From: Octopus sinensis
Lineage: Eukaryota
Length of the DNA stretch: 64,000 nucleotides
Assembly: GCF_006345805.1 (NCBI RefSeq)
Contig: NC_043015.1
Span: forward strand, 25,730,001-25,794,000
Direction: 5' to 3'
Shown here: positions 11,111 through 63,161 of the stretch, in pieces
How the letters are laid out: the number at the start of each line of letters is the position of its first letter
How positions within the stretch are numbered: the stretch's first letter is position 1
The notes under the pieces: generated by a model
What the model was told of the DNA's origin: nothing
Databases searched by the model: none
The model's input: the letters and a program-made list of their open reading frames with translations, nothing else
Program-made: the position numbers and the translations under genes

Positions 11111-11317
11111 GTTTGTTTTAAAAGTAATTTGATCATAAGTATGATCTTTAGATGTGTGTGTGTTGGTGACTATCAGTTTGAGTGCATGTGTGCGTGAGTA
11201 TATGGACAAATTCGAAAGAAATTTCTTTTGGTCTGCGTTGACAACACTTGTATTTTTATTTACATTATTTACATTATTTACATTTGATGGATATTTGGCC
11301 TCATCTTATTTGTTGTT

Positions 11318-11363
11318 AACACAGCGTTTCGGCTGATATACCCTCCAGCCTTCATCAGATGTC
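11318..11363 (-). ncRNA. Minimal type I hammerhead ribozyme motif (inverted copy, cleavage triplet mutated)
   Basis: Minus strand: gacat CTGATGA a GGCTGG agggtata TCAGCC GAAACGCT gtgtt. Confidence 0.6.
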
Positions 11364-11554
11364 TTGAGGAAATGTGGTTAAGAGCGCGGATAACTAACCC
11401 CAAGATTCCGAGTTCGATTCCAGTGACCTGAATAATAATAATAATAATAATAATAATAATAATAATAATAATAATAATAATAATAATAATAATAATAATA
11501 ATAATAATAATAATAATAACATAGAATGAGAACCCAGGTTCGAAATTTCCCCAA

Positions 11555-11600
11555 GACACCTGATGAAGGATGGAGGGTATATCAGCCGAAACGTTGTGGA
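11555..11600 (+). ncRNA. Minimal type I hammerhead ribozyme motif
   Basis: gacac CTGATGA a GGATGG agggtata TCAGCC GAAACGTT gtg; helix III is the ACGT palindrome; one mismatch in stem II. Confidence 0.65.
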
Positions 11601-11987
11601 CAAGATGAGGACAAATATCCATCAAATGTAAATAATGTAAATAATGTAGATAATTCCTCATTTTTTAAATATTGAACAGGTATTTCCTTGTCATGTACTA
11701 CACACATATATATGTGTTCGTGTACGTGCGTGTGTAGGTCAGTGTGTAAAATATATGTATATCTATCTCTCTGTCTATCTACGTATATACACAAGTGGTC
11801 CATCCCTGCTAAGACGATTTAGCGTCTTCCATCTTCCCTTGGTGGATATCTTCTAATTTACTAATGGTATTTTAAGGCTTTTGTAATACTGTTGTATTAC
11901 GAAATCATGAGCTTACGGGTACTTCTCAAACTGATTTCATTGAAGACACTTTTTCACTATATATATATATATATATATATATATATA

Positions 11988-12219
11988 ACATCTTATAATT
12001 AAGGGCTAAAGAAGGTTATTCTAAAGCCAATACACTGATTTATCCACTTATAATCCACTTGTTACAGGAAAATTGAACTGAAAGCGGGCAACTAACCTTT
12101 AGAAAATAAAGGTTAGTTGCCCGCTTTCAGTTCAATTTTCCTGTAACAAGTGGATTATAAGTGGATAAATCAGTGTATTGGCTTAGAATAACCTTCTTTA
12201 GCCCTTAATTATAAGATGT
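11988..12219. repeat. Near-perfect fold-back hairpin (~114-bp arms, 5-nt loop) within a (TA)n-flanked element
   Basis: 11988-12101 is the reverse complement of 12107-12219 with one visible 1-nt indel; loop gaaaa. Confidence 0.95.
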
Positions 12220-12543
12220 GTATACTTCAACCGTAAAAGTTTTTTTAATATACTGCCACGCTTTTTGATGGGATCCTTTTCTGTAGAGAAAGGGACTTCA
12301 TCCTATATTGTTAGTATACATATATATATATATATATAATATATATTATATATATATATATATATATATATATATATATATATATACAGAGAGAGAGAGA
12401 GAGAGAGAGAGAGAGAGGCACACACACACACACATATATTCATAGCTCATACACAATGTATGTGTTTCGTGTTTACGTTGAATTTGCGGCAGAATACCGT
12501 CTCAGGAGAGACTCCCTGATATATATATATATATATATATATA

Positions 12544-13250
12544 TAAGGAAAGATTTTTTTTTAAATGCAGAATGCTCAAATGAAAGAAAATTTTAATAAA
12601 ATGAGAAATTGATAAAATATATAAATATATATTTATTCAACCGGTTTTCGTCATTGTATGACTTGTCAAGAATATTTATGTTTTAAAAAGTTTTTTTTTA
12701 AATTAGAAAGGGGAAAAAAAGAAAATTGCATTGTTTTTTATAATTTGGGTTTTATTGAAGAATTCAAAAGAGTTGTCTCCCCTTACTCACAACACAGGAA
12801 CTGAAGAACCAGAAACACAATTACTACTACTTCCTGTCCTGCAAACATGCTGAATTAAACAACACAACACATGCTCTTAATCCCTTTGGATCTTAACACC
12901 TCAAGGTAATTTTTTCGTGAACAACCATAAAACTCAAGATACACAACGAACTCACAATGTATCGGAGAACTTATTTTTTAATTTTTGTACATTTTTATCA
13001 TTATTCTTTTACAAAAAACAATGCAATTTTTTTTTTCCCCTTTCTAATTTTTTAAAAAACTTTTTAAAACATAAATATTCTTGACAAGTCATACAATGAC
13101 GAAAACCGGTTGAATAAATATATATTTATAATTTTACAATTTCTCATTTTATTAAAATTTCTTTCATTTGAGCATTCTGCATTTTTAAAAAAATTTTTCC
13201 TTACTTATCATTTCTCCACGTGCGGTCAACACAACCCCACCATTTATTGA
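12544..13250 (+). mobile_element. (TA)n-flanked PLE-derived element with ~200-bp inverted arms
   Basis: 12544-12741 is the reverse complement of ~13008-13203; each arm has an HHR-like motif; (TA)n on both sides. Confidence 0.8.
13076..13116 (+). ncRNA. Hammerhead-like motif, U3-A8 core variant (inverted copy at 12634-12674)
   Basis: tattc TTGACAA GTCAT aca ATGAC GAAAACCGGTT gaata: 5-bp stem I, 5-bp stem II, palindromic helix III; one extra A makes the register ambiguous. Confidence 0.6.
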
Positions 13251-60637: not shown

Positions 60638-60760
60638 TTGGCCTGCTGGCTTAGCCAGCGGGGTGGCGTCATTTGAAGGCTAAAACAATGCGAAGCGCAT
60701 TGTGACCAGTGATGTGTAGCAAAATCTGATAGCCTGGTCGGTTACGGTGATCACGGTGAT
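60638..60760 (+). mobile_element. SINE 3' fragment
   Basis: Near-identical to ~17649-17769. Confidence 0.75.
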
Positions 60761-60776
60761 ATATATATATATATAT

Positions 60777-61229
60777 AATCAATGATTAAGGGTAAAATCA
60801 ATTAATTATTAATTAATTTCACCAAGTAGTGTTCAGTATGTAAAAGGCGTAGTACTTTACATACTGAACACTATTACATACTGAACACTATTACAAGGCG
60901 TATTCAAAATATTACGTTATATAATTAGGGCTCAGTAAAATAATTTACTTTGCCACATACTGAAATTTTTAGAAATAGCAGCCAAAAAATGTCGAGTTTA
61001 AATTCGACTAATCTAGAAACGTGAGCGTTCTCAAATAATCTTTGTACATGTGATATTTTGGTGTTTTCCCTCCATATCTACGTGAATTATTTTTGAGTAA
61101 ACACTATCTGGGAGACTCTTCTTAAAGTAGTAGAAATGGTTAAAAAAACTTTTTGGCTGCTATTTCTAAAATTTTCAGTATGCGGCAAAGTAAATTATTT
61201 TACTGAGCCCTAATTATATAACGTAATAT
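60777..61229. mobile_element. (TA)n-flanked element with ~80-bp inverted repeat and a small internal hairpin
   Basis: 60909-60989 is the reverse complement of 61150-61229; an 18-bp hairpin near 60827-60873 has its right arm tandemly duplicated. Confidence 0.8.
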
Positions 61230-61292
61230 ATATATATATATATATATATATATATATATATATATATATATATATATATATATATATATACA

Positions 61293-61701
61293 CTCTTTAC
61301 TCTTTCTCTTTTACTTGTTTCAGTCATTTGACTGCGGCCATGCTGGAGCACAGCCTTTAGTCGAGCAAATCGACCCCGGGACTTATTCTTTGTAAGCCCA
61401 GTACTTATTCTATCGGTCTCTTTTGCCGAACCGCAAAGTGACAGGGACGTAAACACACAAGCATCGGTTGTCAAGCAATGCTAGGGGGACAAACACACAC
61501 ACAAACATATACACACACATACATATATATATATACATATATACGACAGGCTTCTTTCAGTTTCTGTCTACCAAATCCACTCACAAGGCATTGGTCGGCC
61601 CGGGGCTAAAGCAGAAGACACTTGCCCAAGATGCCACGCAGTGGGACTGAACCCGGAACCATGTGGTTGGTAATCAAGCTACTTACCACACAGCCACTCC
61701 T
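61293..61701 (-). mobile_element. Full-length tRNA-derived SINE with internal microsatellite and CR1-like tail
   Basis: Head ggagtggctgtgtggtaag...gggttcagtccc; tail gctccagcatggccgcagtcaaatgactgaaac resembles the CR1-like 3' end at ~803-840. Confidence 0.85.
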
Positions 61702-62696
61702 CATATATATATATGTGTGTGTGTTTGTGTATGTGTGTGTTTGTGTGTGTATGTGTGTGTGTGTGTATGTGTGTGTACATACATATAAATAGATAGAGAG
61801 AGAGATAGACAGACATGAATATATGTGAACTATTGTCTTCGTATATCTGTGTATTAGGATGCCTGAGGACGTCATTGTTCATAGTTGACCATGTCTATGT
61901 GCTGCGGTGCTGTGCGGTAAGCATAATGGCCGATGCACTTTGTGTTTACTTGTGTGTTTTTGTTTGCAGAGTATACGGCAACAAAGCATACACAGACATA
62001 AAGCCACAAATATATCTACACGCAGAGATAAATATATAAACGTATTGATATAAATCAGTGTATTTACATACGTAAAATAACAATCGTTAGTCTTTTGATA
62101 AAGCATACATAATTAACACTATTGTCAGTCTAGAATGAAAGATGGATCTGCAAAAACTAGGAGGGGAACAGAATACCTTCAAGTGTTTAATCATGTCTAG
62201 CAATGTTTTACGCTCAAGTCACCCAGGTCATGATTTTTTGATACATCACAAAACAATTTACAGTTTCAGTAATGGCACTACAGTTCTCGAAAATAAATAT
62301 CCCCCGAAATACATGGCTGTTTGCGTCAGTTTGTAATAAGTGGTGTGTGCGTCCCTGTGTTAGGGATAACCTGGCTGTTCAGTAAAACAGAACGATATAA
62401 TAAATGTCAAGCTTTTCAAAAAAGTACTGCAAGGTGAGGGTTATTCGTTCGTCTACAACCCTTTAAGGTGGTGCCCCAGCCTGATCGTAGTCTGTAGACA
62501 AGTAAAACATAAACACACACTCAAACTTATATGTATGTATATATATATATATATATATATATAATATATTATATATATATATATTATATATATAATATAT
62601 ATATATATATGTATGCGTGTGTGTATGTGTGTATCTATATATACATACACACACATATACTTATATAAAACTTATGTATATAAATATAAATATATA

Positions 62697-63161
62697 TGAG
62701 GTATATTTGCCATCTCAATATGGCTAACCACTAAGGGTGGGTGTTACAAGCTACAGTAACACCCATCCTTAGTGGTTAGCCATATTGAGATGGCAAATAT
62801 TCCTCACATTGTCGTGCAGTTACTGTTTATACCTCGTTCAGAGATTTATTATTGCTTGCATACAGTTTTTCGAGATCAGTGACGAAAAGTTACTGGAAAA
62901 ATGATATAAGTATTTGCATTGGGACCCCTTTTATCGAAAACCGGTGATTGTCGTACACTAATGACACGTCAATACCTAGAAACTGCAGTCCGTGCGTATC
63001 ACTTAGGTTGACTTAAGTGCACAGAAAGTGTGACTAAAGCCAGTTCTCCTGGGGCTACAAGCTACAGTAACACCCACCCTTAGTGGTTAGCCATATTGAG
63101 ATGGCAAATATACCTCACATTGTCGTGCAGTTACTGTTTATACCTCGTTCAGAGATTTATT
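62697..63161 (+). mobile_element. Retrozyme/pLTR-like element: 5' inverted segment plus 106-bp direct repeats (period 311 bp)
   Basis: Hairpin 62697-62806; 62745-62850 repeated at 63056-63161; TA-rich tracts on both sides. Confidence 0.85.
62952..62996 (+). ncRNA. Degenerate hammerhead motif (G5A)
   Basis: cgtaca CTAATGA cacgt caat acct a GAAACTGCAGTC cgtgcg: ACTGCAGT palindrome plus GUC. Confidence 0.6.

Follow-up and report, generated by a model that had tools for sequence, protein, structure and literature searches.

A 64,000-nucleotide stretch of the Octopus sinensis genome (contig NC_043015.1, positions 25,730,001 to 25,794,000, forward strand; assembly GCF_006345805.1), here called the window, carries a dense set of hammerhead ribozyme motifs. 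These are probably type I hammerheads from the 3' pseudo-long terminal repeats (pseudo-LTRs) of many families of Neptune-type Penelope-like elements (PLEs), of which most copies would be 5' truncated and often left as inverted stubs at (TA)n. The set as a whole is of a known kind, PLE-type hammerheads, unusually dense and including one likely retrozyme. What may be new is how dense the motifs are, along with two cores, G3:C8 (27589) and A3:U8 (35774). The original prediction listed 11 groups of motifs, which we label by their positions: A (11318/11555), B (12634/13076), C (15732/16176/44823), D (24281/25301), E (27581), F (34152), G (37697), H (37855/38233/52909), I (40405/40850), J (44741), and K (62952). 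Element Q, an extra hammerhead candidate at 35742 to 35782, lies outside the 11 named groups.

Hammerhead motifs are detected above chance

The window has a GC content of 29 to 43%, and a fifth of it is masked as simple repeats. The hammerhead core was defined by a 3:8 pair, U4, G5, A6, and A9, then G12, A13, and A14, an A15.1-U16.1 pair, and H17, in the order stem I, core, stem II, stem III, stem I. A scored descriptor, composed post hoc after the motifs had been viewed, found 10 motifs with scores of at least 18, compared with 0.17 (maximum, 2) in 100 block-wise dinucleotide shuffles, and no motif in a reversed control. The 10 motifs sit in seven mutually unrelated insertions, those of A, B, C, E, F, H, and I. 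Another descriptor, which allowed any Watson-Crick pair at 3:8, gave 15 matches versus 3.5 in shuffles, and 0 of 100 shuffles reached that number. Covariance models R1 and R2, trained solely on hammerheads behind the PLE open reading frames (ORFs) of other animals, provided independent evidence: their top ranks were the two B motifs (E = 4e-4), F (0.008), the plus-strand A motif (0.01), and J (0.11). Four of the 11 named groups were thereby recovered at E values of at most 0.11, the E values being rough.

Other searches weighed against this result. The comparison of a relaxed descriptor with shuffled controls, proposed for the genome with the original prediction and made here on the window, favored the two versions above, but the first strict descriptors gave 0 to 2 matches, no more than shuffles, and the any-3:8-pair descriptor with one core mismatch gave 15 matches versus 11.5, a number that 19 of 100 shuffles reached. 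In the covariance searches, E (E = 1.2 to 1.4), D (7.9), and I (8.3) lay at noise level, and groups C, G, H, and K were unmatched by both models; C was likely missed because of its long loop II. Rfam gave no match at the gathering score in the window; the best 150 of its 605 matches by E value were microRNA models on microsatellites and hairpins, and a search of four short stretches returned no hammerhead.

These negatives are what would be expected if the palindromic repeats were foldback or miniature inverted-repeat transposable element (MITE)-like DNA elements in AT-rich DNA whose likeness to hammerheads arose by chance, since Rfam shows no hammerhead and the strict and loose descriptors do no better than shuffles. 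Against that explanation stand the excess of scored motifs over shuffles, the empty reversed control, and the ranking of B, F, A, and J at the top by independent models, which largely refutes it for those four groups. In addition, the motifs all face the tail end, and the one-sided tails and partial tandems of the insertions are marks of PLEs (PMC8557442). We consider the explanation highly improbable for the set and likely true for K, whose motif (62952) was recovered by neither the descriptors, the covariance models, nor Rfam and is unsupported. The hammerhead motifs in the window are otherwise real. Direct reading found the full, degenerate, and half motifs described for the 11 groups to be present as pieces, well formed in A, B, C, E, F, H, and I.

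Lower descriptor matches (28809, 34485, 48427, 59791, and others) and lower covariance-model matches (59669, 19448, and 41590) were attributed to chance; none scored at least 14 by the scored descriptor. The top Rfam match by E value, below its family threshold, is a near-perfect palindrome of (CA)n, (TA)n, and (TG)n at 9626 to 9759.

The motifs include unusual core pairs

By direct reading, the core is canonical in A, C, F, I, and J. The type I core is present in full in the plus-strand A motif and in B, C, E, F, I, and Q, with U3:A8 in B, G3:C8 in E (position 3 at 27589), and A3:U8 in Q (35774); E and Q are each a single insertion, and Q has a 2-bp stem II and one mismatch in its palindrome. 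Group H carries one core change, U4C, in both arms of one insertion, and D has U at position 6 in two diverged copies. The core of J is present with weak stems, and K, with G5A and no stem II, falls outside the core as defined. As originally described, some motifs are half or degenerate: those of G, 25301, and 44823 are 3' halves only, and 52909 is decayed. Stem III is a short palindrome in all groups except F, where it has four base pairs.

For E and for Q, 0 of 3,000 local shuffles were as good. A literature search for natural G3-C8 or A3-U8 cores returned engineered G3-C8 only, and the two would be new natural variants if they are typical of their families. Lunse et al. reportedly collected about 150,000 short-stem-III hammerhead variants, a set that may include G3:C8 or A3:U8 cores. 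A pattern for motif E had no match in viral contigs, which is uninformative for an animal element. In an anole element whose cleavage required protein and was dispensable for insertion in vitro, C3G/G8C partly restored cleavage (PMC11167929), so motif E could be active.

Coding fragments and relatives link the motifs to PLEs

Judged by sequence, the two coding fragments in the window appear to be of Neptune type. They lie in the following features.

63197 to 64000, plus strand: PLE insertion beginning at (TA)n, with a reverse transcriptase (RT) core and thumb fragment at 63385 to 63987 containing stops; runs past the window end.
35686 to 36240, minus strand: element Q, with a decayed PLE endonuclease C terminus at 36128 to 36211 (tblastn, 68% over 22 amino acids, E = 3e-7), a 3' untranslated region (UTR) of about 350 nt, and a (TA)n end.
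35742 to 35782, minus strand: hammerhead candidate Q, A3:U8, 2-bp stem II (R1 rank 4, E = 0.72).

The broken RT matched 65 of 157 candidates at E values of at most 1e-10 (tblastn E = 9e-52), the best being linker-bearing proteins 55 to 63% identical to it; one homologue carries an Argonauta name. Its long homologues combine RT with a GIY-YIG domain, and most of 16 aligned full-length homologues carry the CX2-5CxxC linker, a region that the window fragments do not cover and that marks Neptune/Nematis (PMC8557442). Pfam gave no match in four translated pieces, the RT fragment included. Each coding fragment, in RT (63385 to 63987) and in endonuclease (36128 to 36211, minus strand), lies in an insertion with an end at (TA)n.

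Relatives of these elements carry the same type of motif. A single-protein metagenome scan found no relative, and a genome-contig scan gave two loci, one of them a short weak match. An alignment-based scan succeeded; the best 80 of 200 metagenome loci and one genome locus were kept (81 in all, many redundant or cut short). A motif lay outside the ORF in 32 of the 81 loci, with 34 matches versus 0 to 3 in 10 shuffles, on the sense strand and 75 to 750 nt behind the ORF or within the upstream repeat. The 3:8 pair of the 34 matches was C:G in 30, U:A in 3, and G:C in 1; the G:C match, with A6C and on the opposite strand, was dismissed as chance, and on the sense strand the relative loci yielded neither a G3:C8 nor an A3:U8 motif. 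Among 28 relative motifs hand-picked by the pattern itself, the 3:8 pair was C-G in 23 and U-A in 5, loop III was palindromic in all, and pairing was complete at 3:8, in the palindrome, and in the inner part of stem I. U.U at 10.1/11.1, a 2-bp stem II, and UU sites also occur in relatives. The PLE link that had been drawn from the motifs is borne out by the RT and endonuclease fragments, which share the (TA)n setting of the motifs, and by relatives that have this motif type behind an ORF.

Two further observations concern the relatives. In the Neptune-type relatives L001, L024, L030, L044, and L053, an upstream-ORF-like frame seems by eye to start shortly after the 3' repeat, downstream of the hammerhead, a pattern that resembles tandem copies with a first ORF. 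Relative L081, a nearly complete PLE ORF, sits on a 2.3-kb contig assigned to a bacterial metagenome-assembled genome and is likely host DNA in the bin.

Most motifs lie in probably truncated, often inverted insertions

The insertions and their motifs are listed below, with the strand where one was assigned; arm percentages compare the two arms of an insertion, and scores are those of the scored descriptor.

11256 to 11690: group A insertion, head-to-head, internal (AAT)n; arms 11285 to 11373 and 11545 to 11624, 82%; right end approximate; not (TA)n bounded.
11552 to 11603, plus strand: hammerhead A, canonical core (C3 at 11560), 2-nt palindromic loop III, GUU site (R2 E = 0.01; score, 19.9).
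11315 to 11366, minus strand: twin of hammerhead A, C at position 16.1.
12546 to 13252: group B insertion, head-to-head, (TA)n on both sides, one-sided tail of about 50 nt; arms, 85%.
12631 to 12677 (minus strand) and 13073 to 13119 (plus strand): hammerheads B, U3:A8 core (R1 E = 4e-4 each).
15605 to 16295: group C insertion, head-to-head; arms, 92%.
15731 to 15824 (minus strand) and 16174 to 16267 (plus strand): hammerheads C, canonical core, loop II of about 50 nt, palindromic stem III, GUA (scores, 22.4 and 20.4).
23569 to 23621: group D stub, 50 nt, same family by eye.
24187 to 24460, minus strand: group D copy 1, with a hammerhead-like U6 motif at 24277 to 24320 (R2 E = 7.9); inner end approximate.
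25144 to 25405: group D copy 2, head-to-head; left arm motif decayed (U6), right arm a 3' half.
27403 to 27722: group E insertion, head-to-head, (TA)n on both sides, 57-nt tail; left arm without the 3' half.
27581 to 27642, plus strand: hammerhead E, G3:C8 (score, 26; models, E = 1.2 to 1.4).
34040 to 34288, plus strand: group F, solo copy ending at (TA)n; left end approximate.
34150 to 34204, plus strand: hammerhead F, canonical core, U.U at 10.1/11.1, full 4-bp stem III (R1 E = 0.008; score, 27).
37415 to 37731, minus strand: group G, solo copy truncated within stem II, (TA)n on both sides; 3' half of the motif only.
37784 to 38500: group H insertion, head-to-head, (TA)n on both sides; arms, 86%.
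37851 to 37906 (minus strand) and 38230 to 38285 (plus strand): hammerheads H, U4C, A.G at 10.1/11.1 (score, 25.4 for the left arm).
52876 to 53170: group H second insertion, motif decayed, cut by an assembly gap.
40260 to 41027, plus strand: group I, 1.7 head-to-tail copies of a noncoding 445-bp unit, 321 bp being 100% identical; (TA)n on both sides.
40404 to 40483 and 40849 to 40928, plus strand: hammerheads I, intact (score, 29.2); predicted cleavage after 40475 and 40920.
44640 to 44971, plus strand: chimeric insertion of J and the 3' part of C (44776 to 44969); left end approximate.
44737 to 44779, plus strand: hammerhead J, compact, decayed (R2 E = 0.11).
62697 to 63162, plus strand: group K, an inverted 51-nt stub and a partial tandem of a 311-bp unit with a 44-nt tail (106-bp repeat, 98%); PLE-type anatomy.
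11988 to 12315, 23828 to 24180, 35024 to 35375, and 60778 to 61225: hammerhead-free palindromic stubs at (TA)n, with the same anatomy.

Twenty such insertions, with hand-set ends, cover 8,726 bp, or 13.6% of the window. Self-BLAST linked no two groups except J, which is joined to the 3' part of C, in line with the largely unrelated flanks noted at the outset. The inverted and direct terminal repeats noted there were also found: a head-to-head build with motifs facing outward occurs in A, B, C, E, H, and copy 2 of D, and I and K are partial tandems. An inverted copy with a one-sided tail occurs in A, B, C, E, H, and K. In the first five of these, one arm runs on for about 35 to 150 nt as a tail, and in K the inverted stub lacks the last 44 nt of the unit, its hammerhead at 62958 being doubtful. 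Every motif faces the tail end, 60 to 290 nt from the element 3' end. Two observations stand beside these. J and the 3' part of C (44737 to 44969) meet at a shared stretch of a few bases, which looks like a template switch between families. Between the D insertions, a long purine-rich, G-skewed low-complexity stretch (24330 to 25020) may be internal D sequence.

Several results weigh against PLE 3' ends as the source of these insertions. Q, with its motif behind the endonuclease end, is the sole element linked in cis to PLE coding sequence; groups A to K gave no tblastn match to any of 65 PLE proteins; blastn of groups A to K against 82 relative loci found no DNA likeness, the RT fragment alone matching; and by eye the inverted arm of the RT insertion has no recognizable motif. 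Because protein and DNA matches are lacking, a stub of an autonomous element is inseparable from a small nonautonomous family for B, C, D, E, F, G, H, and J. All groups could be independent nonautonomous ribozyme mini-elements, retrozymes or elements like short interspersed nuclear elements (SINEs), that borrow PLE proteins. Group I is such a unit, K has its 311-bp partial tandem, no coding remnants occur in A to K, and, by eye, A has tRNA-promoter-like A and B boxes near 11378 and 11412, for which ARAGORN made no call and Rfam gave no match. However, the 3' UTRs of relatives extend 75 to 750 nt before the motif, so stubs of 100 to 500 nt need no coding sequence; Q and the RT insertion are truncated coding elements in the same setting; and 5' ends fall at varied places, even within the motif (G and 25301). 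We regard mini-elements as a quite unlikely explanation for all groups. The original picture of about ten PLE-dependent mini-element families is upheld for I and plausible for A and K, either of which may also be nonautonomous; the others look like truncated or inverted PLE 3' ends.

(TA)n flanks are real and not specific to hammerhead carriers

With hand-set ends, 9 of the 13 named-group insertions end within 6 nt of (TA)5, compared with 1.9% of random positions, and 11 of 13 end within 6 nt of (TA)3, compared with 5.3%; A and J do neither. (TA)4 lies within 300 nt downstream, in the motif sense, at 15 of 16 motif sites versus 34% of random positions, a count in which the arms of one insertion are nonindependent and two matches are internal AT runs. 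Because hammerhead-free interspersed repeats also end near (TA)4 (within 20 nt in 6 of 13 alignments), the flank is unspecific. The proposed (TA)n boundaries thus hold for most insertions, and the proposed enrichment exceeds random positions but does not set hammerhead carriers apart.

The microsatellites themselves could have expanded from a short TA junction during insertion or later, with no preexisting target. Consistent with this, the first letters of the (TA)n run in I match the unit's own continuation, the end of the inverted H arm coincides with an internal TA run of the template, and the hammerhead-free repeats end near (TA)4 at the frequency given above. The same junction letters, however, fit annealing to an existing run; (TA)4 occurs within 320 nt of the motif in 8 of 18 relatives having at least 150 nt downstream; and Neptune and Naiad PLEs have a described microsatellite insertion bias (PMC8557442). 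We judge such growth unlikely.

The motif CCCT(T)A(A/T)T, picked post hoc, occurs 14 times, and 6 of these occurrences are no more than 10 nt from (TA)n (background, 3.5%): 12005 (minus), 35359 (plus), 37429 (minus), 41018 (plus), 60792 (minus), and 61208 (plus). Three more occurrences are duplicates within the same elements. A general test of (TA)n edges for an excess of CCC/CCT gave no significant result (p, 0.02 to 0.4 over four motifs). CCCT(T)A(A/T)T terminates otherwise unrelated families, and this short terminal motif next to (TA)n, common to several families, may mark the start of reverse transcription. Hammerhead-free SINE-like repeats at 17500 to 17768, 22980 to 23315, 60638 to 60757, and 61291 to 61702 abut (TA)n, some on both sides, and may use the same insertion machinery.

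Group I is a likely retrozyme

From its sequence, group I is likely a non-LTR retrozyme. It has the features by which retrozymes are defined: a short noncoding head-to-tail unit, a complete hammerhead per unit, a GC content below 45% (38%), and no PLE protein match. The cut-to-cut monomer folds at z = -3.0, with A.A at 10.1/11.1.

Copy-level data were gathered for group I, with 4 of 24 listed runs mapped on the monomer. Two DNA runs yielded 509 and 613 contigs. Group I is high copy, because contigs at a depth of 1000 to 1800 occur beside others at 30 to 60; summed contig depth was not used as a copy number. The head-to-tail joint (40704 to 40260) was present at a depth of 10366 in three contigs of one DNA run and with small variants in the other, and therefore the tandem is no assembly artifact. 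One opposite-strand joint represents a PLE-type inversion at another locus. Among listed variants of at least 5%, a stem I change, A>G, retains a G.U pair, H17 A>U stays H, and stem II has four variable sites with unclear compensation. At 40343 and 40444, several contigs leave the unit and have their loose ends in common, suggesting subfamilies or chimeras in which part of the unit recurs.

The joint was also crossed by one contig in each of two runs guessed to be RNA, from different studies. Two points argue against reading activity into these data: both contigs run through the cleavage site and may be DNA or read-through, and the 0 variants in 17 core and palindrome positions, where about 1 is expected from at least 29 variable sites per 445 nt, is not a significant difference. 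The run search found no RNA holder of group I among the runs listed.

Proposed origin of the insertions

We propose that a GIY-YIG endonuclease would nick AT-rich DNA and that reverse transcription would start 60 to 290 nt downstream of the hammerhead and mostly halt early. A second, inverted copy without the last 35 to 150 nt would then give a head-to-head palindrome with a one-sided tail. An internal start of reverse transcription and a second start that defines the tail are described for an anole Poseidon element (PMC11167929). Longer stubs would retain the hammerhead and shorter ones lose it, and many would keep it because it lies so close to the 3' end. With a short palindromic stem III, cleavage is predicted to occur as a dimer, as described for short-stem-III hammerheads (PMC4209133). 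Head-to-head stubs are likely inert passengers, because dimer cleavage is expected and their two motifs are on opposite strands. In group I, two same-sense motifs would release a unit-length RNA, which could circularize and be reinserted by PLE protein.

Comparison with known systems and implications

The closest system is the minimal type I hammerheads of metazoan PLE pseudo-LTRs (Cervera and de la Pena 2014, PMC4209133). The window motifs resemble them in stem order, the short palindromic stem III, the extra base after A9, the presence of several unrelated consensus families in one genome, and the U3-A8 variant, also described in PMC3088659, and in occurring mostly singly or as opposite-strand pairs 100 to 700 bp apart. 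The counted species have about 2,000 to 9,000 motifs per genome (PMC4209133), and the window has 10 in 64 kb; G3:C8, A3:U8, and U6 cores and 40- to 50-nt loops II are window features without a counterpart in the available text of that paper. Insertions of endonuclease-positive Neptune/Nematis PLEs (Craig et al. 2021, PMC8557442; Frangieh et al. 2024, PMC11167929) are alike in partial tandems, an inverted copy, a one-sided tail, and an AT-rich target, with tails described at 30 to 40 nt versus about 35 to 150 nt here. The window elements are not separable between Neptune and Nematis, and Q is the one family with a link to an ORF.

Animal non-LTR retrozymes (Cervera and de la Pena 2020, PMC7229834; Li, Clavereau, and Pollet 2026, preprint 10.64898/2026.07.22.740005), described as PLE derivatives, share with group I a noncoding tandem unit (reported range, 51 to 972 bp), a type I hammerhead per unit, high copy number, and a GC content such as the 38% of I. 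Group I differs in its A.A at 10.1/11.1, long stem-loop II, and 1.7 units in (TA)n. Group A resembles schistosome SINE-like hammerhead elements, in which a promoter precedes the hammerhead (PMC6765202), in its promoter-like boxes seen by eye and differs in that a tRNA origin was unconfirmed by ARAGORN or Rfam. Among cephalopods, 31 recently active Penelope-like families are described in O. vulgaris (PMC13282606) and 235 Hammerhead_1 loci by Rfam in the giant squid (PMC6962438). Our literature search found no dedicated report of octopus or cephalopod hammerheads and no report of a cephalopod retrozyme.

At seven insertions per 64 kb, a genome of a few Gb would hold some 10^5 of them, but the window was chosen for its richness. 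Tentatively, the genome could hold on the order of at least 100,000 hammerheads unseen by Rfam, which many Penelope families and one or more retrozymes would have spread and which would use all four Watson-Crick 3:8 pairs (C:G, U:A, G:C at 27589, and A:U at 35774). If so, G3:C8 and A3:U8 hammerheads would exist in nature, within a natural library in which to test the core changes that dimeric, protein-assisted hammerheads tolerate, and such cores would broaden ribozyme search descriptors. Hammerheads in PLEs are known, cleavage was dispensable for insertion of the anole element in vitro (PMC11167929), and many recent families with core variants would allow asking whether cleavage is selected. 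Standard annotation overlooks these motifs, as the absence of Rfam matches in the window illustrates, and animal ribozyme counts may be far too low.

Other coding remnants in the window

Decayed coding remnants resembling long interspersed nuclear elements were seen by eye at 331 to 708, 1200 to 2340, 3600 to 4150, 25900 to 27050, and 54300 to 56000; Pfam gave no match in the three pieces tried. At 46723 to 48400, a long (TAA)n run is followed by decayed non-LTR-like coding sequence, presumably similar to Dong/R4-type elements.

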